This document shows, one piece after another, positions 29,080 through 57,794 of a DNA stretch of 64,000 nucleotides (the stretch's first letter is position 1; each line of letters opens with the position of its first letter). The DNA is from an uncultured Verrucomicrobiae bacterium (GTDB lineage Bacteria > Verrucomicrobiota > Verrucomicrobiia > Limisphaerales > Palsa-1400). The DNA is taken from contig CAVPOM010000003.1 in assembly GCA_963707025.1 (NCBI GenBank), forward strand, positions 128,001-192,000, given 5' to 3'. The position numbers and the translations under genes were made by a program. Under the pieces are notes generated by a model, which did no database searches, had not been told where the DNA came from, and saw nothing but the letters and a program-made list of their open reading frames with translations.

Positions 29080-30162
29080 TCAATTCAGCAGCCGGTACCA
29101 ATTGTCCCGCTGATGCGGCTCGTAGCCCGCGTCCCGGATCAGCCGCTGCATGTCCGCCACGCTCATGCGATGCGTCGTCCCCGCCTGCGACACCACATTC
29201 TCCTCGATCATGATGCTGCCCAGGTCGTTGGCCCCGAATTTGAGCGCCACCTGCCCGATCTCCGGCCCTTGCGTCACCCACGAGCTTTGGATGTTGGCAA
29301 TGTTATCCAGATAAATCCGGTTCACCGCCTGCGTGCGCAAATAATCATGCCCTCCCAACGTCGGCGCCTTCAACCGCGTGTGCTCCGCCTGAAACGTCCA
29401 CGCGATAAACGCCGTGAACCCCTTGGTTTTGTCCTGCTGCGCCCGCACCCGTTCCAGATGTTCGATCCGGTCCTCCAGCGTTTCCACATGCCCGAACATC
29501 ATCGTCGCCGTGGTCGCCAGCCCCAGCCGGTGCGCCGCGTCCATCACCCCCAGCCAGTCGTCGCTCATCGCCTTCAGCGGCGAAATCCGCTGCCGCACCC
29601 GGTCCACCAAAATCTCCCCGCCCCCGCCCGGAATCGAGCCTAGCCCGGCCTTGACGAACTGCGCCATAATCTCCTCCACCGGCATTTGGAAAACTTCTCT
29701 GAAATGAATAAACTCGCTCGGACTGAACCCGTGGATGTTCACCTGCGGGAACTTCGCTTTGATGTGCGCCAGCAAGTCCAGGTACCATTGCAGCGAAAGC
29801 TTGGGGTGATGCCCCCCCTGCATCAGAATCTGCGTTCCTCCCAGCGCCAGCGTCTCCTCGATCTTCCGGTCCATTTCCTCCAAGGTGATGACATAGGCGT
29901 CGGCCTCCCTTTCCGTGCGGTAGAAAGCGCAGAATTTGCAATACACGTTGCAGACATTCGTATAATTGACGTTCCGGTCCACGATATAAGTCACGATGTC
30001 GTTGCCCCGGCCCTCGTGCCTTTGGGCCTGGGCCAGTTGCCGCCGCCGGTCGGCCAGCGCCCCCAGTTCCTCCAGCGGCAGGCCATAAAGCCGCCGGGCC
30101 TCCGCCTGGTCAATCCGTTCCCCCGCCCAGACCTTCTGCAACAAATCTGCGTCATCACTCAT
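29080..30162 (-). CDS. mqnC: Cyclic dehypoxanthinyl futalosine synthase (radical SAM)
   Basis: YIVDRNVNYTNVCNVYCKFCAFYR, ILMQGGHHP, SIPGGGGEIL, IQSSWVTQG, GSIMIEENVV. Confidence 0.95.
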   Translation of the reverse strand: MSDDADLLQKVWAGERIDQAEARRLYGLPLEELGALADRRRQLAQAQRHEGRGNDIVTYIVDRNVNYTNVCNVYCKFCAFYRTEREADAYVITLEEMDRKIEETLALGGTQILMQGGHHPKLSLQWYLDLLAHIKAKFPQVNIHGFSPSEFIHFREVFQMPVEEIMAQFVKAGLGSIPGGGGEILVDRVRQRISPLKAMSDDWLGVMDAAHRLGLATTATMMFGHVETLEDRIEHLERVRAQQDKTKGFTAFIAWTFQAEHTRLKAPTLGGHDYLRTQAVNRIYLDNIANIQSSWVTQGPEIGQVALKFGANDLGSIMIEENVVSQAGTTHRMSVADMQRLIRDAGYEPHQRDNWYRLLN

Positions 30163-34342: not shown

Positions 34343-35512
34343 TCAGGCCGAGGCCAGATTTTCCTGCAAAATGGCGGACGCCCCGCTCTCCCTCGAAGCT
34401 TCCCGCTCCGGCGCCGTCTCCCACACCTTGATCGGCTGGTAAAAAGTATTGCGCTGCACCGCCGTGCGCCCCGTTTCCCGGATGGCCCTGACCATGTCCG
34501 TTTCCGTTTGCAACTGCGGCGTCCGCGCCCCCGCCATGTGAAAAATATTCTCCTCCAAAATGGTCCCGTGCAAATCATCCGCCCCGTAACTCAGCGCCAC
34601 CTGCGCCAGCTTCAATCCCATCCCCACCCAATAGGCCGTGATGTGGTCGAAATTATCCAGGTAAATCCGGCTCACCGCAATCGTGCGCAAGGCATCCAGA
34701 CCCGTCGGCGCCGTCTTCACCGCCATCCGGTTGTTGTCAGGCTGGTAGGGCAGGGGCACAAAACCGGTGAACCCGCCGGTCTCATCCTGCAACGCCCGCA
34801 GTTGGCGCAAATGATCCACCCGGTCCCCCGGCGACTCCACATGCCCATAGAGCATGGTGCAGGTGCTCCGGCCGCCCAGCCCGTGCCAAGTCCGGTGGAC
34901 GTCCAGATATTCCTCCGCCGATTCCTTCCCCCGCGCGATTTCTGAGCGCACCTCCTTGCGAAAAATCTCCGCCCCGCCGCCGGTCAGCGATCCCAGCCCG
35001 GCCTCCTTCAATTCCAGCAGCGTCTCTTTCACCGATTTTTTCGCCAGCCACGCCAGGTGCAAAATCTCAATCGCCGTGAAACATTTCAACTCCAGCCGCC
35101 CGTCCACCTCCCGCAGCGCCCGCAGCATCTCCGTGTAATAACCGAACGGGAGCGAGGGATGCAGCCCCCCCACAATATGCAACTCCGTCACCCCGGCCTT
35201 CAGCGCCGTCCGCGCCTTCTCCACCATCTCCTCCGTCGAAAGCTGGAACCCGTCCGCGTCCCGTTTCTTGCGCGCGAACGCGCAAAACTGGCAGCTCAAT
35301 ATGCAGTAATTGGAATAATTGATGTAGCAATTGACGATGTAACTGGCCCGGTTCCCGTTCTTGCGCGCCCGGGCCAGATCCGCGATGGCCCCCACCGCGT
35401 TCAGGTCACGGCTCTCAAAAAGGCGCAGCGCCTCCTCCTCCGTTATGCGCCCGCCCGCCGCGACTTTCTCATAAATGTCGCGCAGGCCGCTTTGTTGCAA
35501 AAAAAATTTCAC
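34343..35512 (-). CDS. mqnE: Aminofutalosine synthase (radical SAM)
   Basis: NYSNYCILSCQFCAF, ELHIVGGLHP, LTGGGAEIF, HITAYWVGMG, GTILEENIFHMAGA. GTG start. Confidence 0.93.
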   Translation of the reverse strand: MKFFLQQSGLRDIYEKVAAGGRITEEEALRLFESRDLNAVGAIADLARARKNGNRASYIVNCYINYSNYCILSCQFCAFARKKRDADGFQLSTEEMVEKARTALKAGVTELHIVGGLHPSLPFGYYTEMLRALREVDGRLELKCFTAIEILHLAWLAKKSVKETLLELKEAGLGSLTGGGAEIFRKEVRSEIARGKESAEEYLDVHRTWHGLGGRSTCTMLYGHVESPGDRVDHLRQLRALQDETGGFTGFVPLPYQPDNNRMAVKTAPTGLDALRTIAVSRIYLDNFDHITAYWVGMGLKLAQVALSYGADDLHGTILEENIFHMAGARTPQLQTETDMVRAIRETGRTAVQRNTFYQPIKVWETAPEREASRESGASAILQENLASA

Positions 35513-40068: not shown

Positions 40069-43000
40069 CTACAACACGGCCGCGCGTTGTTCCCCCGCCC
40101 GCCGGCCCAGGTTGCCGTAGCGATGGTAATCAATGCTCAGGCTCTGCTCTTGCAGATACCAGAGCAACTCGGCCCGGCCTTCCGTCAGCACCGGGCGGCC
40201 CGCCACACAAACACCGCTTTGCCCGGCTGCTTCCAACACGGCCGCCGGCACCCGCTCCGTGGCGGCGTAGCGCACGCGCTCGGTCTGGCGCTGACGCATC
40301 ACCTCCGCCAACTCCTCGTCCGTCTCCTCGACAAACTCGATGGCCCCCGCCCAGGATTCGGTAATCTCCTCCAGCAATTTCAGCGCGGGCGGCGCGAAAT
40401 CCGGCGGCGCGCTGACCGTCACCCGGCTGCCGGCCACCTGCGCCGCGCAAACGCGCGCAAACAGATCGAAGGGAGAATCGTCCGCATGCACCCGCACCCG
40501 CACCTCACGGAACGGCCGGTACCGGCGGAAGTTGTCCTGGCCGACCAACAGGAAATGATCGTGCTCCTGGCCGAACTCCTCCAGAAAACTGCGTTCATAA
40601 CTCACTGCGGCCGCCGCAATGCGGTCCGCCAGGCCGGCGCCCACGGGACCCACTTCGCCCGCGCGCCTGGCCAGCCCTTCGCACAATCCGGCCAGCCCGG
40701 CATTTTGCGGCGCGCGCACCGGCTTGGCCGCCGCCGCGTCTGCCATCTCCATGAATTGCGCCGCGTAATTCGGACCGCCCGCCTTCAGGCCGGGGCCGAA
40801 ACTGGACTTGCCGCTCCCGCCAAAGGGCTGGCGCAGCACCACCGCGCCGGTGGTGCCCCGGTTAATGTAGAGATTGCCCGCCCGCACGTGCTCCTTCCAA
40901 TAGTCCCATTCCCGTTCATCCAGGCTTTCCAGGCCCGAGGTCAGTCCGTAGCCGGTTTGATTGACCAGGGCGACGCCTTCGCTCAGTTTGTCAAAACGCA
41001 TCACGGCCAGGAGCGGTCCGAAAAATTCCGTCAGGTGCGTGTAACTGCCGGGTTGCACGCCGTATTTGACTCCGGGCGACCAGAGCCGGGGATTGCCCCC
41101 GGCATTCTGCGGCATCACCGCCCATTCCTCCCCTGGCTCCAGCACCTTGAGCGCGTTTTCCAAATCGCCCGTCGGCGGGCGGATGAGCGGCCCCATCTTC
41201 GTCTCCAGTTTCCAAGCCGAACCGACCGGGATGCTTTGCACCGCCTCGCACAGCGTGCGCCGAAAAGCCGGGTCCCGGTACACTTCCGCTTCCAGCAGCA
41301 ACAACGACGTGGCCGAACATTTCTGCCCGGCATGGCTGAAGGCCGAATGCAAAATATGTTTGATGGCCTGGTCGCGGTCGGCCAGCGCCGTCACTATGGT
41401 CGCGTTCTTCCCGCCCGTTTCCGCGAACAGGTTCAGACGCGGATTGTCCCGCAACATCCCGCGCGCCGTCTCCGTCCCGCCCGTGAGAATCACGGCCTTG
41501 ACCCTGGCATGATTGACCAGGTTCCGGCCTGCGCCGCCGCCGGGGCACGCCACCAATTGCAGCGCCTTCTTTGACACCCCCGCCCGCCAGAAGCATTGGC
41601 ACAGCTCCCAGGCGCTGAGCACCGCGGCGGAGGCCGGCTTGAGAATGACCGTGTTGCCGGCGGCCAGCGCCGCCGCCAGGCCGCCGCACGGAATGGCGAT
41701 CGGAAAATTCCACGGCGCCACCACCACCACCACTCCGGCCCCGCGCGTTTTCAGCGTCGGCATTTCCCCCCACCACCGCGCCGTGCTCCGATAAAACTCC
41801 AGAAAATCCACCGCCTCCGACACTTCGGGGTCGGACTCCAGAAAGGTTTTGCCGCCCTCGGCCAGGGCGGCGCCCATCAGATCGCCCCGCGCCGCCCGCA
41901 ACTCCTGCGCGACCCGGCCCAGTATGGCAAACCGTTCCTCCACCGGCGCGCGGCCCCAGCCGTCCGGGTCCGCCGCCGCGCACTCCACGGCGCGGGCTAT
42001 GTCCTCCTCGGACGCCTGCCGGCAGCGGCCCACCACCACGCCGGGCCGGGACGGGTCGGCACAATCCAGCACCGCGCCCCCTTCAAAAATTTCGCTGCCC
42101 TCAATCACCAGCGGAATTTGCGCCGCCCTGGCATCACAGCGCGGCTCCCATTTGGCCAGCAGCCCCTGAGCCCACTCCCCGTTTTGCCCAAGGGCAAAAT
42201 CCGTGTCCGGCTCATTGACCAGATTCTGCCAGCCGTGGGCGATGGCGGCGGGCGCGGCCGGCGGCCGGCGGCGGTCCTGCGTGCGGCGGGGCGCGTCGCT
42301 GGTCGTGGCCATGGCCGCGAAGGACTCCAGGAAACCTTGTTCGAGCTTTTGCCACTCGGGATTGCCCACGCTGATCTTGAAGGCGTGGCGCAGAAAATTC
42401 TCCGGCCCGGTGTTTTCGTCCAGGCGGCGGATGAGGTAGCCGATGGCGTTGATGAAGTTTTCCTTTTTGCAGGCCGGCGCGTAGAGCAGCAGGTGCCGGC
42501 TCAATTCAAACAGCGCGCGGCGCTGGTTGTTGGCCATGCCCTCCAGCATCTCGAATTGCACCTGCTCAAACGCCTTCCGTTCGTGCGCCAGCACCAGGCC
42601 GTAAGCCAGGTCGAACAGATTGTGCGACGCGATCCCCACGTCCATCGCGGCCAGGTTTTCCGGCTTCATCGTTTCATGCACCATGCGCTTGTAGTTGGCA
42701 TCGGTTTCCCGTTTGGACCGGTAGGGCGCCTGCGGCCATCCCCGTACCGACGACTCGGCGCGTTCGCTTTCCAGGTTGGCCCCCTTGACCAGGCGGATGG
42801 TGACGCGCCCGCCGCCCGCCTCCGCCCGCCGGCGCGCCCATTGCTGAATTCGCAGCAGGGTCTGGAAGGAATCCGGGATGTAGCTTTGCAGCGCGATGCC
42901 CGCCCGCGCCTGCTCCAGCCCCGGGCGTTCCAGGGCGCGCATGAAGGCCTCCGCCGTCAGTTCCTTGTCGCGATATTCTTCCATGTCCAGATAGACGAAC

Positions 43001-43724
43001 TTGGGCGCCACCTGGCCGTCCGGCCGGGTAAACTGCATCCGCGCCGCAGTGCGCACCAGCCGGTCAATCCGGTCGCACAGCACGGCCACCGTGTGCTCCC
43101 GGGCCAGCGGGGAAATCTGCGAATAAAGCGTCGAAATCTTGATGGACACCACCTCGATTTCCGGCCACTGCAAGCCTTGCAAGTATTGCTGCAGACGCCG
43201 TTCGGCTTCCGCTTCGCTTAGAATGGCTTCCCCGAGGAAATTCACGTTCATGCGAACCCCTTCCCGCTTCCGTTCCCGCAAATGCCCGGTCAGCATTTCC
43301 CGCTCGCCGGGCAGAATCACGTTGGCCGTCTCTTTCTGCATCTGCCCTTTGACCAGGGGCAGCGCCACCCCGGGGGCGTAACCGCCGAAGGACTGGAATC
43401 CCTTCATCAGCGTCCGGTCCATCGCGCTGAAGAATCGCGGCACCCCTTGCACGTCCAGGATGTGAACCAGATGCTCCACGGCCCGGGCGGGTCCTGCGTG
43501 CGAAAGGCCTGGTCGGTCATCTGCGCCAGCGTCGCCTTGTCTGAGGGCGTTTGCAGCATCCGGTCCAACTCGGCCTGTTGCCGCCGCTCCGCCCCGCTCT
43601 GCAATTGCCCGGCCCGTTCCTGCAGCCGGCGCGCCAGGAAGATCGCCTTCTGCGCGGAAGGCGAACTGGAGGATTTCGGGTCGGGGCTGAAGTTCTGGAA
43701 CAAAGAATCCAACTGGTCCTTCAT
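40069..43724 (-). CDS. putA: Bifunctional proline dehydrogenase / P5C (glutamate-semialdehyde) dehydrogenase; one apparent frameshift near 43488
   Basis: N-terminus in ORF 43407-43724 (...MTDQAFR); adding one G gives DPARAVEH and joins ORF 40069-43983. PRODH motifs LDMEE, RLVKGAN, YLIRRLDEN; ALDH motifs PWNFP, ETGGKN, GQKCSATS, EFFGP, QPFGG. Confidence 0.93.
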
Positions 43725-43769
43725 AATGCGCGGCTTGGGGTGGGAGGTTGGGCCGGACGGCGCCGCGCC

Positions 43770-46181
43770 CTAAAAGCTTTCGTGTTCGGTCCGGGCGATG
43801 ATTTCTTCCTGCAATTCGGTCGAGAGATCGCAAAAGTAATCGCTGTAGCCCGCCACGCGAATAATCAAATCGCGATGCTGCTCCGGGTGTTGTTGCGCCT
43901 GGCGCAGTTGCTCGGCCCGCACCACGTTGAATTGCACATGGTGGCCGTCCATCTTGAAATAGCTGCGCACCAGGTGGGCCCATTGCTCCAGGCCTTCTTC
44001 GGCGGCGACCAGCCCCGGCGTCAATTTCATGTTCAACAACGTGCCGCCCGCTTTGAGATGATCCATCTTGGCCGCGCTCTTGAAGACGGCGGTCGGCCCG
44101 TGCCGGTCGGCCCCCTGCGCCGGCGAAATGCCTTCCGAGAGCGGCCGGCGCGCCCGGCGGCCATCGGGCGTCGCCCCGATCATGCTCCCGAAATAGACAT
44201 GGCAGGTCGTCGGCAGCATCTCGATCCGGTAATGGCCTCCCTTGGTATTGGGCCGCCCGTCCAGTTCTGCAAAGCAGGTGTTGAAAATCTCCACCGTGAT
44301 GTCATCGGCCGCGTCATCGTCGTTGCCGTATTTGTGGGTGCGGTTGAGCAGGCGCTGGCGCAGCACCTCCTGCTCCGCGAAATCCGCGTCCAGGATCGCC
44401 GCCATTTCACCCAGCCCCAGCCGTTTGCCGGCCGGGGCGCCCTTTGCCTTCCGCCCCGCCGCCCCCTGGCCGTTGCGATTGTCAAAACAAAATTGTCGCA
44501 GCGCGCTGAAGCTGTCCGTCAGGCTCCCCAGCCCCACGAACTGCACGTAGGAGTTGTTGTAACGCGCCCCGCCCGCGTTGTAGTCCAGCCCGCGCTGGAC
44601 GCAATCGTCGGTCAGCACGCTCAGGAAGGGCGCCGGCATCAGTTGGGCGAACATCCGCTCGATCAACTGGTTGCCGCGCACCTTGATCTCCAGGAAATGG
44701 CGCAATTGCCGCCGCCAGGCCGCAAAGAGCGCGGGGTAGGTTTGGAACGTGTCCGGCTCTCCGGTGCGCAGCCCGATCTGCCGGCCCGTCATCGGATCCA
44801 CCCCGTTGTGCAGGGTGATCTCCAGCACTTTGACCAGGTTAAAATAGCCGGTCAGGATGTAGGCCTCCTTGCCAAACGCGCCCACCTCCACGCACCCGCT
44901 GCAGCCCCCGGCCCGCGCGTCTTCCAGCGTCTTGCCCTGGCGAAGCTGCTCCAGCACCACCGCGTCTGCATTAAAAATGGAGGGAAAACCATACCCATGC
45001 CGGATCACCCGCAAGGCATGCGTGAGAAAGGCCTCCGGGCTTTTTCGCGAAAGCTGCAGATTGCTGCTCGGTTGCAGCAGGTGCATCTCCTCCACGATGT
45101 CCAGCAGGATGTGCGACACCTCATTGGAGCCTTCCGAGCCGTCCGCCAGCAGACCGCCCAAATTCAGGTTGGCAAAGTCGGTGTAAGTCCCGCTTTCCGC
45201 CAGCGTCACCCCCACCTTGGGCGGCGCCGGATGGTTGTTGAACTTGATGAAAAAGCACTCCAGCAACTCCCGCGCCTTCTCCCGGCTCAACGTGCCCTCC
45301 GCCAGCCCTTTCTCGTAAAAGGGCAGCAGGTGCTGGTCCAGATGCCCGGGGCTGAACGAATCCCACCCGTTCAACTCCGTGATCACCGCCAGGTGGCAGA
45401 ACCAGTAATATTGCAGCGCCTCCTGGAAATCCCGTGGCGCCTGCGCCGGCACCCGCCCGCAAACCTCCGCGATCTTCTCCAACTCCGCCCGCCGCGCCGC
45501 CTTCTTTTCCGCCGCCGCCATTTCCCGCGCCAGCGCGCCGTGCCGCTCCGCCAGCCGCAGGACCGCGTCGCAGGCGATGTCAAACGACCTCAGCGCCTCG
45601 CGCTTGTTGTAGGCGTCGGCGTCCTGCAGGAAATCCAGCCCGGCCATCGCCCCGGCAATGTCCCGTTTGAAATCCAGCATTCCCTTCCCGTAAATCTTTC
45701 CGTCCAGCACCGTGTGCCCCGGCGCGCGCTGCTCCATAAACTCGGTGAACAGGCCGGCCTGGTAAGCCTCGTGCCATTCCGCCGGCAATTGCGCGAACAT
45801 CTTCTCCCGCATCGAGCGGCCCCGCCAGTAGGGGATGACCTTCTCTGCATAGACCCGCCGCGTTTCCGGCGTCACCTCGTAATGCGTCTTGGCCCGCGAG
45901 TTCAAAATCTCCAGGTCCTCCACGCTGTGGCAGGTCAGCTCCGGAAACGTCGGCGTCTGTTTCGGGCCCGGCCCGCGCTCGCCCACGATCAGTTCGCCTT
46001 CCCCGAGGTAAAGGGCCTTGTGCTCGCACAGATGCAGAAACGATTTCGCCCGCATCACCGGCGCCGAGTGCCGCCCCTCGTTGGCCTGATAAAATTCCGT
46101 CATCAGCACCGCCCGCTCGGGCGAGATCGAAGGGCGCGCGGCCAGGCTTTCCTGCCGCAGTTTCTCAGTGCGTGGCGTCAT
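43770..46181 (-). CDS. hypD: trans-4-hydroxy-L-proline dehydratase (glycyl radical enzyme)
   Basis: FTEFMEQRAPGH, WDSF, PAPPKVG..LAESGTYTDF, SGCVE (catalytic Cys), LTGY, MLPTTCH, RVAGYS (radical Gly). This is the motif set I recognise from characterised HypD. Confidence 0.93.
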   Translation of the reverse strand: MTPRTEKLRQESLAARPSISPERAVLMTEFYQANEGRHSAPVMRAKSFLHLCEHKALYLGEGELIVGERGPGPKQTPTFPELTCHSVEDLEILNSRAKTHYEVTPETRRVYAEKVIPYWRGRSMREKMFAQLPAEWHEAYQAGLFTEFMEQRAPGHTVLDGKIYGKGMLDFKRDIAGAMAGLDFLQDADAYNKREALRSFDIACDAVLRLAERHGALAREMAAAEKKAARRAELEKIAEVCGRVPAQAPRDFQEALQYYWFCHLAVITELNGWDSFSPGHLDQHLLPFYEKGLAEGTLSREKARELLECFFIKFNNHPAPPKVGVTLAESGTYTDFANLNLGGLLADGSEGSNEVSHILLDIVEEMHLLQPSSNLQLSRKSPEAFLTHALRVIRHGYGFPSIFNADAVVLEQLRQGKTLEDARAGGCSGCVEVGAFGKEAYILTGYFNLVKVLEITLHNGVDPMTGRQIGLRTGEPDTFQTYPALFAAWRRQLRHFLEIKVRGNQLIERMFAQLMPAPFLSVLTDDCVQRGLDYNAGGARYNNSYVQFVGLGSLTDSFSALRQFCFDNRNGQGAAGRKAKGAPAGKRLGLGEMAAILDADFAEQEVLRQRLLNRTHKYGNDDDAADDITVEIFNTCFAELDGRPNTKGGHYRIEMLPTTCHVYFGSMIGATPDGRRARRPLSEGISPAQGADRHGPTAVFKSAAKMDHLKAGGTLLNMKLTPGLVAAEEGLEQWAHLVRSYFKMDGHHVQFNVVRAEQLRQAQQHPEQHRDLIIRVAGYSDYFCDLSTELQEEIIARTEHESF

Positions 46182-46205
46182 GGGCTTTCACGATGACACG
46201 CGCGG

Positions 46206-47120
46206 TCAGCCGCCTATCTTCACCTCGAAGCCGCGCTGGCGGAATATTCCCGCGGCGCGCTCCATCCCCTCCGGGGAAGGCGGTTCCACGCTTGCCAACG
46301 CATAAGCATGGCTCATCTGGCGCGACTTGAAAAGCCCAAATTTGTGATAGGGCAAAAGATTCACCCGCCTCACCCCGGGCAATCCCGCGGCGAACCCTGC
46401 CGCCGCCTCCCAATCCTGGTCCCCGTCATTGATCCCGGGAATCACCGGCACCCGCAGCCAGATGTTCCCGTGGGCACGGGCCAGGGCGCGCAAGTTGGCC
46501 AGAATCGGCCCGTTGGAGACACCCGTGTACTGCCGGTGCCGCGCCTCGTCCATCAGCTTCAGATCATACAAAACCAGGTCGGTCATCCCGGCCACCTCCA
46601 GCAAAACGTCCGTGCAGGCGAATCCGCAGGTGTCCAGCGCCGTCCTCAGACCCTCCCGCCGGCAAGCCGCCAGCAGCCCCTTGAGAAAAACCGGCTGCGC
46701 CAGCGGTTCCCCGCCCGAAAAGGTCACGCCCCCGCCCGATTCCTCGTAAAAAACCCGGTCCTGCCGCACCGCTTCCATGATCTCCCCAATCGTCCTGCGT
46801 TCCCCTATCATCTGACGCGCCCCGGTCGGGCAGGCCTCGGCGCACTGCCCGCAAACCAGGCATTCGGCCGCGTCGGTTGGCATGGCCCCTTGGCCGGCCA
46901 CCACCTCCCCGAACGGGCACGCCCGGCGGCACTCGCCGCAGGCCGTGCAGCGCTTTTCAGCCACCACCAGCTCCGGCCGGGCCGACTGGCTTTCGGGATT
47001 ATGACACCAGGCGCAGCACAGCGGGCATCCCTTCAAGAAAACCGTCGTGCGAATTCCCGGCCCGTCGTGCAGGCAGTACTTCTGCACATTGAAAACCAGT
47101 CCCGACTCATTCATGCGCAT
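46206..47120 (-). CDS. Glycyl-radical enzyme activating protein (radical SAM with ferredoxin insert)
   Basis: HDGPGIRTTVFLKGCPLCCAWCHNPES, two CxxCxxCxxxCP motifs, GGVTFSGGEP, LLPYH. Confidence 0.96.
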   Translation of the reverse strand: MRMNESGLVFNVQKYCLHDGPGIRTTVFLKGCPLCCAWCHNPESQSARPELVVAEKRCTACGECRRACPFGEVVAGQGAMPTDAAECLVCGQCAEACPTGARQMIGERRTIGEIMEAVRQDRVFYEESGGGVTFSGGEPLAQPVFLKGLLAACRREGLRTALDTCGFACTDVLLEVAGMTDLVLYDLKLMDEARHRQYTGVSNGPILANLRALARAHGNIWLRVPVIPGINDGDQDWEAAAGFAAGLPGVRRVNLLPYHKFGLFKSRQMSHAYALASVEPPSPEGMERAAGIFRQRGFEVKIGG

Positions 47121-47226
47121 CTTATTTGCCGCCACATCCCCCATCATAACCCCCGCCCCAGAATGAGCAACCCCTGTCCACTCTTCCGGGAAGCGCATGG
47201 GTCCAGTTCAGATTTTTGGGTTCCCC

Positions 47227-47310
47227 TCTTAATCTTGCTCCTAATCTTAATCTTAATCGCATCGCCCTCCCGCATTCGGATTAAGAGCAAGATTAAGATT
47301 ACGATTAAGA
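47227..47310. repeat. Inverted pair of AATCTT-hexamer arrays (hairpin)
   Basis: TCTTAATCTTGCTCCTAATCTTAATCTTAATC facing GATTAAGAGCAAGATTAAGATTACGATTAAGA. Confidence 0.8.
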
Positions 47311-47885
47311 AAGAGGACCCAAACATGTGAAATGAACCCGGGAGCGCATGGGTGGAATCCCGATCCAATCGGGACCCGTCCCGCCGGGCCACTGGCCCGG
47401 CGGCAGATAGCGGACTGCCATTCTGTAAGAAAACCGCGTCCGGTGAAATTCCCTCCCCCCACGAAGTGTGGAGAGGGTTAGCCGAGGCACCATTTCGCGC
47501 AGGGCGTGAGCGAACCATAATTGAAAAACCCGCTTGTCCTGATTCCTCATACGTCATCCCGGCCTTGATTATCAAGGCTTTACATCGTTTTGCCTCATCC
47601 CGAATCATCCCGAATCTACCCGAAAAATGGCAAACAGTATTAGATTCCAGTATCAGATTTCCCCAAAACCATGCGCCTCGGCCCGGTCTGTGTTCCCGTC
47701 TCGCCTGTCCCGCCGTAGCTTTGGCGAACGCGGATCACTCGGCTTCCTGAAACCAGGAAGGGCCTAACGGGTTTTTCCATTGCCGGACGACCCAAACTGG
47801 CAGAACCTGCCGGCCTTGCACGACCCCGAGCTTCAGTCGAATTGGTTTGCAGATCGCGGCAAATCCCATATTATCAAAATCCGGT

Positions 47886-48842
47886 ATGATACTGGCCTCG
47901 ACATCCGCCATTGAAACGCCCGATAGGCCGGCTGCCGTCATTCGCCGGCGAAATGGCAAGCCGCCGTCGGTTTCCAGGCTCACCGAGAAGAAACTAATCC
48001 CCTTTGGCTGGTATGGGGGAAAATTCTCCCACCTCGCATGGCTTCTTCCGCTGCTCCCGCGATGCCACCATTATTGCGAGCCGTTTGCAGGTTCGGCTGC
48101 CGTGCTCCTTAACCGTTTGCCATCCCGCGTCGAAACCTACAATGATCTTGATGGCGAGGTATGTAATTTTTTCAAAATTCTCCGGGACCACAAATCGAAG
48201 TTGGTTGAGGCCATTGGTTTGACCCCTTTCTCCCGCGAGGAATTTGCTCTGGCCTGCGCTCTTGATCCCGAAGTTTCGGCACTCGAACGCGCCCGCCGTT
48301 TTTATATCCGTGCCCGACAAGTGCGCACGGGCCTCGCGCAAACCGCTACGGTTGGCCGCTGGGCCAATTGCAAAAATACCAGCCGCGCCGGCATGAGCGG
48401 CGTGATCAGCCGCTGGCTGGGCGGGGTTGAAATGCTGCCCGAAATCGCGGACCGCCTTCTGCGCGTGCAGATTGAGAACCGACCGGCCATTGACGTAATC
48501 AGGCTCTATGATTCCCCGGACACCCTCTTTTATTGCGATCCTCCCTATATCCACGAAACCAGAGGCGATTCAAAGGCATACGGTCACGAGATGACCGACC
48601 ACCAGCATTGCGAGTTGGCGAAAGTGCTTCACGCGGTCAAGGGCATGGTTGCGATTTCAAATTACCAATGTCCGCTGATGGACGGACTTTATCCCGCCCC
48701 CCGCTGGCACAAAATTGTCGGCCCGGCTCGCACCAATCACGCGACTAAGGGCACGCGAGTTGAGCTGCTTTGGGTCAATTACAAACCACAGAACAAACCC
48801 TTGAATGACCGAAACGGATACCTGTTTGAAGATTCTGAATGA
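47886..48842 (+). CDS. Dam-family (D12 class) DNA adenine methyltransferase
   Basis: WYGGK, YCEPFAGSAAV, YNDLD, FYCDPPY. Start uncertain. Confidence 0.93.
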   Translation: MILASTSAIETPDRPAAVIRRRNGKPPSVSRLTEKKLIPFGWYGGKFSHLAWLLPLLPRCHHYCEPFAGSAAVLLNRLPSRVETYNDLDGEVCNFFKILRDHKSKLVEAIGLTPFSREEFALACALDPEVSALERARRFYIRARQVRTGLAQTATVGRWANCKNTSRAGMSGVISRWLGGVEMLPEIADRLLRVQIENRPAIDVIRLYDSPDTLFYCDPPYIHETRGDSKAYGHEMTDHQHCELAKVLHAVKGMVAISNYQCPLMDGLYPAPRWHKIVGPARTNHATKGTRVELLWVNYKPQNKPLNDRNGYLFEDSE

Positions 48843-49842
48843 CGCTTATTCCCGAGCAGCTTCTCAGATCACCAAATCCTTCATAAACGACGCTGTCATC
48901 TTGCAGCGTGTTGAAATGGTCGCCCTGTGCCTCAGAAATAGGGCGGGCGTAAGGGCCTTGCTGGCTGGCGCCCTCGCCAAAGTGTACCAACCCAAACTCG
49001 ACATCCGCAAACCATACACGGACATCGCGGGCCGGGCGCGGAAAGGCTGTTTTTCGGGCCGCGCTTTTGATGAACACTACATCCAGACCCTAACTGCGAA
49101 GCCTTACAATTTGCCCATAAACGCGACGACCGCTTACCTGACTCCCGGATTTCGGACCAAGAACATCGTCCTTACGCCTGACGTGGAGCTGGAGGGCCGC
49201 CCACCGGAGATGTATAAAGCGGTGCTTCAGCTTTTCGATGACGTGCAGAAAAATCGGGTGTCGGCGCAGAATGTTCTCGATGAAGCGATGCGACTGCTCA
49301 TCATTGAGCGTGACAAGCGCGATTTGACTCTTCAGAACCTCCTCACCGACATCAAACGGACGACCGACAAAATGCCCCTCGCGGCAGAGGACATAATAAA
49401 TCTCATTAGCCAGCATTTGGCCTGCAAGAATTCCGCCCGACTGCCGGTTCTGGTGATCGCCGCCGCCTACAAGGTGGCCGCAGAGCGGCTGGGCGAGAGA
49501 ATTCTTCATCTACACTCGCACAACGCCGCCGACAAACAAACGGGGGCCGCTGGAGATATTGAAATCACCCTTTTGGGGGACGACAACGTCGTCACGGCTT
49601 ATGAAATGAAGATGAAACCTGTCGCCGTTGCCGACATCGACATTGCACTCGAAAAAATCAGGACCCACAAGGCCACAATACAGCACTATCTGTTCATCAC
49701 GACCGACAACGTTGACCAGGAGGTGCGTGAATACGCCGCAGCGCTTTACGACGAACTTGGCGGGTGAGCTGGACCCCTATTTTTAGACCACAGGTAAGTT
49801 TCGATTTTTGCCGGTTTGCTGTAGATAAGAAAGAGCAGACTT

Positions 49843-53511: not shown

Positions 53512-56500
53512 ATGTCTGGTGGCGTGCAGACGCCGGAGATTGAGATCATGTTTTGCGCGGGTGTGAACATCGGCGCCTTGTCGGTCAAGGCCGTGGCGCT
53601 GCATGACGGGCGGAGGGAGCCGCGGATTGCGCCACATTGCGGCCGTCCCCTGGAAACCCTCAAGGCGTTGCTGGCCCAACCGGAGTTTGCCGGCGCGGAG
53701 TTTTTCGGCGTTTCGGGACAACTGGGCCATCTGACCGAGGTCGCGGCCATTCGGCGCGCCTTGCGCGAATTGGGGGAAGATTTCGATGCCGTCGTCTCGC
53801 TGGGCGGAGAGGCCTTCCTGGTTTACTTTCTGACCCGCGGCACCATTACCAATGTCCTTTCCCACAACAAGTGCGCCGCCGGCAGCGGGGAATTCTTCGT
53901 CCAGCAAATCGGCCGGATGGGACTGGGGTTGGAAGACGCCATCCAGCTCTCCTTCCAAGGCAAGGTCGTCCCGCTGGCCTCCCGCTGCTCGGTCCACTGC
54001 AAGTCCGACATCACCCACAAGCTCAACCGCAATGAGGCGGCCCCGGCCGACATTCTGCACACCCTGCACGACAGCATGGCCGGCAAGGTGGTGGCGCTGC
54101 TGGAAAAAGGGCTGCGTTCGCGCCGGCGCGTGCTTTTGATCGGAGGCGTCAGCCGCAACGCCGCCATGCTCGCGGCCTTGCGCGCCAAGCTGCCCGGCAC
54201 CGAATTTGCCGTGCTGCCGGAAAGTCCCTGGTTCGAGGCCTGGGGCACTGCTTTGCTGACCCGGGACGAGCCTGTCCACCGCTCTCCCAAGCTGTCGGTC
54301 CAGCCGCGCCTTGGCCGGCTCCGCCGCTCCGGCGCGTCGCCGACCGGGTCCAGGTCATCCCGGCCCCGGCCCGCCAGTCGCCCCCGGATGGCCCGATGGT
54401 GCTGGGAGTGGATGCCGGCTCGACCACCACCAAGGCCGTGCTGCTCGATCCGGCCACCGGCGGCGTGGTCGCCTCCCACTACCTGCGCACGCAGGGCGAC
54501 CCGGTGGCCTCGTTGCGCGCCTGCCTGCGCGCACTGGCGGAGCAGGTGGGCAACCGCCCCATCGGCCTGATGGCCACCACCGGCTCGGCCCGGGAAATCG
54601 TCGGCGCCTACCTGGGCACCGAATATGTTTTCAACGAAATCTCCGCCCACGCCGCCGGCGCGGGCCATTTCGACCCGGAGGTGGACACGATTATGGAAAT
54701 CGGGGGGCAGGACTCCAAATACATCCATCTGCGCAATGGCGTTCCCATTGACTATGCCATGAACAACGCGTGTTCGGCCGGTACCGGCTCGTTTCTGGAA
54801 GAAAGCGCCAAAAGCGACCTGGGCGTGACGGTGTCCGCATTATCGGGCGTGGCCCTGGACGCTTCCGCGCCGGTGCATTTCAAGGCGACCTGCGCGGCGT
54901 TCATCAACTCGGATATTCGGGCCGCCCAACAACAGGGATATTCGCACGATGACATTGTCGCGGGCCTGGTCTATGCCATCGCCGCCAACTACCTGACCAA
55001 GGTCAAGGGGCCGCGTCCGGTCGGCCGGAAGGTGTTTCTCCAGGGCGGCGTGGCCCTGAACCGCGCGCTCGGCCATGCTTTTGCCCATCAGGTTGGCCGG
55101 CCGGTGGTGATTCCCCCCGACCCGGAGTTGCTGGGAGCCTTGGGCGTGGCGCTACTGGCCTTGCAACGGTCCAAGAGCCCGGCGGACACGGCTGCGGAAC
55201 TGGGCGCCCTGGCGGCCTTGGAACTGGAGCGCGTGGGCCGCTTCACCTGCCATGCCTGCAAACTGTATTGCAGCATAGACCGCTTTAAAGTCGGCGGCCG
55301 CGTCTTCCCATTCGGCGGGCGTTGCAGCCTGTATGAGAATGTGTGGAAGCGAAAGTCGCGCACCGCCGCCGCTCCGGACCTGGTGGAGGAACGGACCAGC
55401 CTGCTCTTTGACCGTCCCTCGGCTGGCCCGGCAAACGCGGACTTGCGCATCGGCATTCCCAAGGCGCTCCTGACCCATTCTCTCCATCCGCTTTTCGCCA
55501 CCTTCTTCCACGGTTTGGGAATCGAAACGGTCCTGTCGGGCGTGGATCCGCAGGGCGATCTGAAGTCCAACGCCGGCTTTTGTTTTCCCGTGCAAATCGC
55601 CCACGGCGCGGTGCTGGATCTGGCCCGGCGCGGCGTGAAGCTGGTCTTCCTGCCGCAGGTGATGCACATGCCCCAGCCCAACGCGTGCGGCGATTGTTAT
55701 TTGTGCCCGATCACCCAGGCCAGCCCCTCCTTCATGGCCAAGGCCTTTCCAGACCTGCAATTCCTCTCGCCGCTGCTGGATTTCTCCAAAAGCTACGCCG
55801 CTTCTGCCGCGATGGTCGAGATGGCGGTTGGCGAGTTGGAGTTCCCACACGACCTGGCCGCCAGCGCCTGGACCGCCGCCGTCGGCGCCCAGGTGGAAGC
55901 GGAACGCGCGCTGCGGGAACTGGGCCAAAAGGCGCTCGACCAGGCGGTGGCAGAAGGGAAGCTGGCGGTTCTGCTGGCCGGTCACAGCTATAGCGCCTTT
56001 GCGCCGGAAGCCTCCCAATCGGTGGGCCGAAAGCTCTCCAGCATGGGCGTGACTGTCATCCCCGGCGATTGTCTGACGCCGGTCGAGGCCGGCCCCACCG
56101 CCTGGCACTTCGCAAACCAGATCCTCAATGCCGCCGCCATTGCGAAAAAGCATCCCAATTTGTTCCTCCTTTGCGTGAGCAATTTCAGTTGCACCATGGA
56201 CGCCTTCACCCAGTCCATCCTGGCTTCGGAGATGGGATCCAAACCCCACCTGATCCTTGAGATTGACGCCCACACCGCCGACGCCGGCATCCAGACCCGC
56301 TTGGAAGCCTTTCTGGACATCGTGGCCAACTACCACTCCGTCCATAATCCTCATCCCAATCTCAATCCCAATCTTAATCTTAATCCTAATCTTAATCTTA
56401 ATCCTCCCATCCGTCCCTTCAACCCGTGCCAATTGCTGCCGGGTGGCCGCGTCCTCCGCAGCAATGGCGAGTCGGTTCGGCTCGACGACCCCCGCGTGAA

Positions 56501-57794
56501 GATCCGTTTCCCCAATTTCTCCCAATACCACTCCGAAAGCCTGGCCCAGGCCGCCCGCTGGCTGGGTCTGAATGTGGGCGATACAGTCCCGCTTGAGCGC
56601 AATCAATTGGAGCGGGGCCTGGAGCACACCTCGGGGCGCGAGTGCCTTCCCCTGCCCATCTGCATCGGCCAACTGCTCCAGATCAGTGAGCGCCGCCCGC
56701 CCGGGGAAATCACCGGCTTCTACATGGTGCGCGGAGGCGCCCCCTGCGTCTCGGACTGTTACATGGGCTATTTTCAAAGGTTCATCGCCGAACAACAGTT
56801 GCCCGATCTGTTCCTCCTCAATCCCACCCCGGAAAACGGCTGGTGCGGCCTGGACCGCACCGCCCTGGTCCAAAGCGTTTCCCCGGCCATCCAAATGGCG
56901 GACATCCTGGTGGAGATCGAGCAAGTTCTGGGCGCGGTGGGCTTGCCCGCCAGCGTGGATCAGCTCCGCGCGCAATGGCGGCGGTTCCTGGAGGAGGCCT
57001 CCTCCCTGGACCAGTTCAACACTAATCTCCCGGCCTTGGCCGATTGGCTGGCCGCGCTGCCGCTCACACGAGACCCTTCGGCCTGTCCCAAGGTCGTCAT
57101 CACCGGCGACTTCTTCACCCGCTTCAGTCCCTTCTTCATGGAAGGTGTCCACTCGCTCTACGCCGCCAGCGGCATCATCCTCAAGCCGGTGGACCTGGGG
57201 GATATGGTGCAATACGCCACCTATCACGATGTGGCCGGAGCGGCCAGCGGTTGGGGCATGAAGCCGGGTGTGCCGGCTTTGGCCAAAGCCTGCCTGAGAA
57301 TGTTTCAGCCCGACGGCAAACAATATCTGCGGCAGTGGATGAACTATCACGCCGAACGCTGGCTGGAAGGCCGCTACCGCCAGATCTTCCGCAAGACCGC
57401 CCTGCTGGTGGCCGGCCCTAACAACGTCTCCTCCCTGTTCGATAAAGCTTCCCGCCACATCTCCCCGGCCATTTTTGGAGAGGCCATTCCCAGCGTCGGC
57501 AAAGGTTTGGAGGCCGCCAACGAAGGCTACGACGGCATCTTCCTCATCGGCCCTTTCAACTGCCTGCCCTACCGCATCTCCGAAGCCATCCTCAAACCGC
57601 TCAGCCTTCAGACCGACATGCCGCTTTTGACCTACGAGAGTGACGGCTATGCCGTTTCACCTTCCTTCCTCCGCCAGGTCGAAGTCCACATCGAACAAGT
57701 TCTCCAGCGCTCCGCCCAGCGCCGCCTGAAAATGGCCCAAATCCATCCCCTCCTCCCGCCCTCCCGCTTCCGCAAAATCAAGACGCCGGTTTGA
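53512..57794 (+). CDS. Multidomain acyl-CoA dehydratase activase (two BadF/BadG/BcrA/BcrD ASKHA ATPase domains + DUF2229/HgdAB-like region); one apparent frameshift near 54321
   Basis: KCAAGSGEF/RCSVHCKSD and GVDAGSTTTK/EIGGQDSK/CSAGTGSF/CAAFINSD; CFPVQIAHG, EIDAHTADAG..TRLEAF, GRECLP, PFNCLP. One extra C restores RLPPLRRVAD...PMVLGVD. Confidence 0.9.

Follow-up and report, generated by a model that had tools for sequence, protein, structure and literature searches.

A conserved activase-hypD-putA gene block in Verrucomicrobiota and a candidate oxidative route from hydroxyproline to glutamate

In the 64,000-nt stretch of DNA analysed here (the window: positions 128,001-192,000 of the forward strand of contig CAVPOM010000003.1, assembly GCA_963707025.1, from an uncultured soil Verrucomicrobiae bacterium), the genes for a glycyl-radical activating enzyme, for the glycyl radical enzyme HypD and for the bifunctional proline dehydrogenase/glutamate-semialdehyde dehydrogenase PutA all lie on the minus strand and follow one another in this order of transcription. 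Comparison with related sequences supports the view that this block is a conserved unit of one clade and not an accident of a single genome. We lean towards a direct route, in which hydroxyproline would be converted to Δ1-pyrroline-5-carboxylate (P5C) and the latter to glutamate by the aldehyde dehydrogenase half of PutA, with PutA also handling proline. As far as the literature was searched, what is new is PutA as the gene partner of HypD, the enzymes and the route being already known or proposed.

Identity of the enzymes and layout of the block

The central gene, hypD (43770-46181, minus strand), encodes a protein of 803 residues which reaches 1194.2 bits against the HypD model NF043068 (cut-off 1100), all other families scoring below 600, and its best solved structure is that of C. 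difficile HypD (6VXC, E 8e-294). When mapped on the 6VXC alignment, 13 of the 13 active-site residues of the C. difficile enzyme (F152, R156, H160, D278, K326, S334, D339, F340, C434, E436, Y450, T645 and G765, the number of this glycine being presumed) are identical in the window protein. Apart from G765, the positions follow PMC7077986 and PMC6219649, the residue roles being those of PMC7077986. With the family cut-off passed and the residue set complete, the glycyl radical enzyme of the block is HypD as judged from its sequence, in agreement with a first-pass annotation of the window which had named it from its intact active-site motifs. Its nearest relatives are Verrucomicrobiota records, part of them Limisphaerales or subdivision 3, and no second copy was found in the source genome by tblastn.

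Upstream of hypD lies the activase gene (46206-47135, minus strand), for which a GTG start at 47135 is likelier than the ATG at 47120. Its product has the Pfam domains Radical_SAM and Fer4, the cluster motif of radical S-adenosylmethionine enzymes, a ferredoxin insert and two extra 4Fe-4S motifs, and it passes the general activase model TIGR02494 (343.6 bits, cut-off 174.35). Although it stays below the cut-off of the HypD activase model NF043069 (356.7 against 425 bits), this is still the best of all activase models, and the protein is assigned as HypD activase by this match and by its position beside hypD.

The gaps between activase and hypD (24 bp, 46182-46205) and between hypD and putA (45 bp, 43725-43769) agree exactly with those of the first-pass annotation, and a terminator-like site was found in neither. 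The three genes are likely to form one operon, their co-transcription being suggested by the short gaps and the conserved order. A predicted promoter, TTGCTS-N16-TATGAT (47143-47170, minus strand), lies 6-7 nt upstream of the activase GTG and is present with the same spacing in 4/4 hypD-putA-linked loci that have upstream DNA (the window, L035, L218 and L209); it scores under the threshold of the promoter scan itself, and is absent upstream of the activase in L018, a relative without putA. Were it to act as a promoter, the transcript would be leaderless or nearly so. Upstream of this motif, a low-complexity palindromic repeat of TTAATC type occupies 47200-47330, and a similar run is seen in L035.

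The third gene, putA (40069-43724, minus strand, about 1218 codons), is split in the assembly by a frameshift, which is weighed below. Its product carries the Pfam domains Pro_dh and Aldedh; the NCBIfam PutA models rank best yet stay below cut-off (403 against 747), and the PutA of an intact relative has 5UX5 as its best solved match (E 1.9e-195). Twelve PutA catalytic motifs, those of the aldehyde dehydrogenase included, are present in the window protein and in five linked relatives, and both domains are under purifying selection, the ratio of non-synonymous to synonymous substitution (dN/dS) being 0.05-0.11 for the proline dehydrogenase (PRODH) and 0.10-0.18 for the aldehyde dehydrogenase (values of 8 of the 15 pairs). 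A decay of PRODH in the hypD-linked PutAs is rejected by these values and by the intact motifs. No other PRODH was found in the source genome (18 contigs, 6.96 Mb, 88% complete), PutA being the only one. That PutA might act as a hydroxyproline oxidase is unlikely, given that the tyrosine of its LLYAP motif, which we take to be the equivalent of E. coli Tyr540, is retained. The role of this tyrosine is described in PMC3718742.

Conservation and rarity of the block

The order activase-hypD-putA recurs in L021/L035, L017/L046, L209 and L218, with hypD-putA gaps of 59 bp, and the flanks of the block fall into four unrelated contexts, that of the window included, at synonymous distances of about 0.3-1.0 among the lineages that bear it. 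The linked HypDs form one clade (support 99), which also contains L018, and the linked PutAs likewise form one clade, with the unlinked L261 as sister or nested. In L020/L036 the two genes have decayed together, hypD having a stop at codon 22 and putA being cut down to two fused ends with stops. In this decayed block (L036:75-3610), hypD is followed by about 1 kb of other sequence. A further contig, L274 (2,082 bp), shows the different order putA-activase-hypD with a gap of 22 bp, and its activase is excluded from the clade of the window (approximately unbiased test, p-AU 0.008). Thus, one joining of hypD and putA is well supported by the sequences, and a second, drawn from this single short contig, is probable.

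The first-pass annotation had also pointed to menaquinone genes 5-11 kb away. These do lie near the block in the window, the end of putA being separated from mqnE (34343-35512) by about 4.6 kb and from mqnC (29080-30162) by about 9.9 kb, but neither gene, nor the downstream oxidoreductase or the upstream methylase, had a match in eight loci of linked relatives; as non-conserved neighbours, the menaquinone genes are rejected as part of the unit.

Considered more widely, the arrangement is rare. The hypD neighbourhoods, whose survey for putA versus proC the first-pass annotation had proposed, were examined in the best 80 of 586 loci found (56/80 with at least 1.5 kb of upstream and at least 1 kb of downstream sequence); putA or its remnant was present in 3/80 and proC in 0/80. 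From the opposite side, 4 of 69 metagenome putA loci, 63 of which have usable flank on at least one side, were linked to hypD. Genome sets were also surveyed from the order of the host (301), from other Verrucomicrobiota (250) and from Bacteroidota (301). Within the order, HypD exceeds its cut-off in 41 genomes, PRODH is present in 65 and both in 11, and none of the five hypD loci from the other Verrucomicrobiota has a neighbour of putA or PRODH type. A GntR-like regulator, so named by its appearance, stands upstream of activase-hypD in 18/80 loci, for instance L057, L060, L062 and L065, and in none of the clade of the window.

Among the Bacteroidota, hypD occurs in 15/301 genomes, and in 3/15 a monofunctional PRODH lies within 4 kb, two of these having a P5C dehydrogenase as well; in L302 the PRODH follows hypD after 66 bp. 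In L302, L304 and L307 the cluster also includes an aldolase of the dihydrodipicolinate synthase (DHDPS) family, two of the three further have an Xaa-Pro peptidase and a glyoxylate-type aminotransferase along with the P5C dehydrogenase, and L307 adds a gene of the proline racemase family. By gene content, these clusters resemble an anaerobic hydroxyproline cluster joined to an oxidative one of the mammalian type. The aldehyde dehydrogenase near hypD in L305, which accompanies a lysine 6-transaminase, was not taken as a P5C dehydrogenase.

Fate of P5C and the alternative readings

According to the proposed route, the activase would arm HypD under anoxia or at very low oxygen, and HypD would dehydrate trans-4-hydroxy-L-proline to P5C; after hydrolysis of P5C to glutamate semialdehyde, the aldehyde dehydrogenase half of PutA would oxidise the latter to glutamate with NAD+, and glutamate dehydrogenase, which is encoded in the source genome, would presumably convert glutamate to 2-oxoglutarate and ammonia. 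Hydroxyproline would thereby enter PutA at its midpoint and skip the flavin/quinone step, which would act on the proline set free alongside hydroxyproline from proteins rich in both. The coupling of the HypD route to quinone in the first-pass annotation had to be withdrawn: since the oxidation of P5C to glutamate uses NAD+ at the second site of PutA, the direct route needs no quinone, and quinone coupling applies to proline only. That free P5C can enter PutA directly is plausible by analogy with the PutA of B. japonicum, which oxidises added P5C with a Km of 2.4 mM and a kcat of 6.7/s (PMC5786444). The retention of the block in different flanks, the second joining in L274, the joint decay in L020/L036, the purifying selection and the proximity of hypD to P5C/proline oxidation genes in 3/15 Bacteroidota loci all support this direct route, as do the short gaps free of terminator-like sites and the glutamate dehydrogenase, oxidase, POR_N-family and epimerase-like genes of the source genome. 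The pull of P5C towards glutamate proposed in the first-pass annotation is in part supported, by the intact PutA motifs and by the activity in vitro of the homologue on free P5C, whereas its argument from a missing proC fails: none lies in the window, but one is found on the same contig (C3:37184-37969, about 130 kb from putA) and in 4/4 other hypD carriers of the family.

A number of observations weigh against the direct route, and they are set out here together with the alternatives. The most serious of these, which we nevertheless consider unlikely, is an indirect loop in which the distant ProC would reduce P5C to proline, and PutA would oxidise this proline to glutamate by its channelled two-step reaction, giving the same end product while electrons of NAD(P)H are handed on to quinone. 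Besides the presence of proC in the source genome and its relatives, this is favoured by the stronger conservation of the PRODH half of PutA relative to the aldehyde dehydrogenase half, so that proline oxidation is apparently still needed, and by the covered tunnel in which PutAs pass on the intermediate that they form themselves, the Km of the homologue for free P5C being in the millimolar range (PMC5786444); moreover, neighbouring PRODH and proC genes have been discussed as such a loop (PMC12899673). Also against the direct route, the hypD-linked PutAs are marked by just four substitutions, none of them within a catalytic motif. Against the loop, proC is a general biosynthetic gene which is not linked to hypD in any of the 80 loci, and the extra step would need quinone as a sink at the very time when there is no oxygen.

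Rather less probable is an incidental or regulatory neighbourhood, in which an activase-hypD cassette landed once upstream of the native putA of this clade, and P5C would go mainly to ProC, for proline salvage, or to a stand-alone P5C dehydrogenase, as in the PutA-less majority of the order. The source genome encodes three enzymes that can, by their annotation, take P5C (PutA, ProC and a stand-alone P5C dehydrogenase), and the last two could consume it in place of PutA. Across the 301 genomes there is no significant co-occurrence, PRODH being present in 11/41 genomes with hypD and in 54/260 others (Fisher p 0.41, kinship uncorrected), and hypD and PRODH are adjacent in 3/41 hypD genomes, the source included. 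In 30/41 hypD genomes neither PRODH nor a match to TIGR01236 or TIGR01237 was found (in incomplete genomes, with at most four candidates scored in each), and HypD therefore seems usually to do without them. PutA of the same type is common without hypD, as the 4/69 linked loci show; L220 keeps the gene order but has an insertion of 1.7 kb that separates hypD from putA, and L018 (G021) retains activase-hypD in a genome in which PRODH was not found. The second joining is likewise less firm for two of its genes, in that the HypD and PutA pieces of L274 group elsewhere and a placement in a single clade is not rejected (p-AU 0.22 and 0.10, respectively). Yet the block survives the replacement of both flanks in four lineages, the L274 joining and the joint decay in L036 point the other way, and a chance neighbour that acts on the very product of HypD is improbable.

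A further possibility, of similarly low probability, concerns the source strain and cuts across the other readings, being compatible with a functional block in the relatives: putA may be a true pseudogene, replaced by the stand-alone P5C dehydrogenase. The gene lacks one base at 43487-43490 (minus strand) in comparison with L035 and L046, leaving an N-terminal open reading frame of 105 residues (43407-43724) and the remainder in another frame. A check of reads at 43488, as had been proposed in the first-pass annotation, gave a clear answer in relatives, where 4/4 contigs that bridge the site (run X2) hold one extra base, but not in the strain itself: the contigs of run X1 match the window exactly and stop short of the frameshift, so that no own-strain read covers it. 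A pseudogene would accord with this gap, with the decayed copy L036 in the same genus, and with the rarity of the stand-alone enzyme (C3:34639-36279, facing away from proC; TIGR01236 800, cut-off 613.6), which occurs in 3/301 genomes of the order, two of them in the genus of the host. Nevertheless, a same-genus relative that has the stand-alone enzyme, there not next to proC (source locus L189, C3:34639-37978), retains an intact putA, and the 1140 codons past the frameshift are open, without further stop or shift, and under normal purifying selection. Frameshifts are also frequent in the source assembly. A nucleotide-level count of insertions and deletions (8 in 220 kb) was too strict, and a protein-level test over 400 kb of a same-genus genome was used instead, which found 19/129 genes frameshifted in the source assembly and 1/127 in the reverse direction; at this background of about one per 11 kb, a gene of the length of putA has a 28% chance of being hit. 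Because of this excess and of the intact relatives, the frameshift is most likely an assembly error.

Finally, in a disproportionation without an external acceptor, one P5C would be oxidised to glutamate (yielding NADH), while PRODH running in reverse on menaquinol would turn a second one into proline. The PRODH half-reaction is reversible, and such a reading would explain why an anoxic enzyme comes with a complete PutA whose PRODH is strongly conserved, as well as the monofunctional PRODH 66 bp after hypD in L302. We regard it as very improbable, however, since physiological reverse PRODH was not found in the literature search, ProC already performs P5C reduction and the high-affinity oxidases of the genome are a simpler sink. 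At the same very low probability, a two-way PutA behind HypD would amount to a redox-balanced, possibly energy-conserving hydroxyproline fermentation without ProC or proline reductase.

Variable features, genome setting and relation to known systems

The first-pass annotation had singled out an insertion of about 17 residues in HypD. Such an insert is indeed present (residues 568-584, 44430-44480, minus strand; a gap against 6VXC), and has the same length with a different sequence in L035, L036 and L046, but it is not distinctive. The loop between fixed anchors measures 58 residues in most HypDs and 75 in these four, and ranges from 57 to 310, the 297-310 class comprising three lineages with an in-frame Y1 transposase domain. 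In the latter (L097:7001-10114, L095:6219-9320 and L101:7001-10075), the loop holds a Y1/RAYT-like domain flanked by repeat-like peptides, Pfam Y1_Tnp being matched in two of the three; L107, L109 and L091 have shorter repeat-like remnants. The 17-residue insert is not a repeat of the source genome. In an AlphaFold model of HypD (mean predicted local distance difference test score, pLDDT, 77.7) it is coil with pLDDT below 50, a value which is not specific because active-site loops score low as well. As loop length varies freely in the order, a functional novelty is rejected, and the insert is, on these comparisons, tolerated variation of a loop and not a feature of the pathway.

Two other parts of the window may be mentioned. 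The genes at 47847-49767, for a methyltransferase of the Dam family and for a protein with weak likeness to SacI, point away from the activase and were not found with the block in relatives, and acyl-CoA dehydratase activase-like genes with a TIGR00241 domain (53512-57794), apparently split across two frames, form another locus of anaerobic type.

Elsewhere in the source genome, terminal oxidases of aa3-type, cbb3-like and bd kind are encoded, together with four POR_N-family matches, NiFe hydrogenase-family matches and 11 GH127 matches; [FeFe] hydrogenase was not found at the 88% completeness of this genome. A likely aerobic hydroxyproline route is suggested by the gene content of C6:63332-68182 (L278), which comprises an AraC regulator, a gene like that of hydroxyproline epimerase (394 bits against a cut-off of 450) and three dehydrogenase-subunit genes, with a GH127 gene about 6 kb downstream; within it (C6:63332-67055), the genes after the epimerase-like one encode FAD and Fe-S subunits similar to those of D-hydroxyproline dehydrogenase. 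In the family of the host the epimerase occurs in 14/31 genomes, namely in 5/5 hypD carriers and 9/26 others, and in 10/11 PRODH carriers. Where oxygen is low, the activase-hypD-putA block would be the counterpart of this cluster, and the gene set fits a facultative organism using proline and hydroxyproline as substrates. In Pseudomonas and Sinorhizobium, the aerobic pathway runs through epimerase, D-hydroxyproline dehydrogenase, deaminase and 2-oxoglutarate semialdehyde dehydrogenase (PMC6219649), of which the epimerase and a three-subunit flavo/Fe-S dehydrogenase have their likeness here. In contrast to that pathway, the genes stand at a separate locus, the epimerase remains just below family cut-offs, and the deaminase and semialdehyde dehydrogenase were not identified in the genome; a pair of genes on C4, one for an aldehyde dehydrogenase and one DHDPS-like, could not be assigned to these downstream steps.

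Compared with 5UX5, which we take to be the class 3B PutA of Corynebacterium freiburgense, the PutA of the block has the same order of PRODH, glutamate-semialdehyde dehydrogenase and C-terminal domain, the KGAN motif and the catalytic residues; the window putA differs in having no adjoining putP transporter or put regulator and in sitting behind a glycyl radical enzyme. With the C. difficile system of HypD, HypD-AE and ProC (PDB 6VXC and 6VXE; PMC7077986, PMC6219649), the window shares the enzyme family, the complete set of 13 residues and an activase directly upstream, but it has PutA as partner without an adjacent proC, a host with aerobic and microaerobic oxidases, and the 17-residue loop insert.

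The contrast drawn in the first-pass annotation, with proC in other loci and oxidation in this one, had been published before. Huang et al. 2018 (PMC6219649) report that proC does not adjoin hypD in most cases, describe the fate of P5C as unresolved for most HypD carriers, and put forward as a proposal its oxidation to glutamate by a dehydrogenase neighbouring hypD. Their Oscillibacter valericigenes example, hypD with a putative dehydrogenase, has the same proposed route and end product, and the present case differs by a bifunctional channelling PutA in place of a single dehydrogenase and by its occurrence in Verrucomicrobiota, which the text of that paper does not mention by name. Neither a hypD-putA operon nor a test of the oxidative branch was found in the literature searched, the scope of which excluded subscription papers and supplements, or in passages of a 2026 review; in the one paper retrieved that names both genes, the passages on them do not link the two.

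The gain is incremental: the enzymes are known, the route was suggested before, and the trait belongs to one small clade. A compact block with intact copies in relatives offers direct access in vitro to the oxidative branch and to the feeding of a channelling PutA from outside. If the direct route holds true, some Verrucomicrobiota of soil and peat would mineralise the hydroxyproline nitrogen of plant-wall glycoproteins both with and without oxygen.

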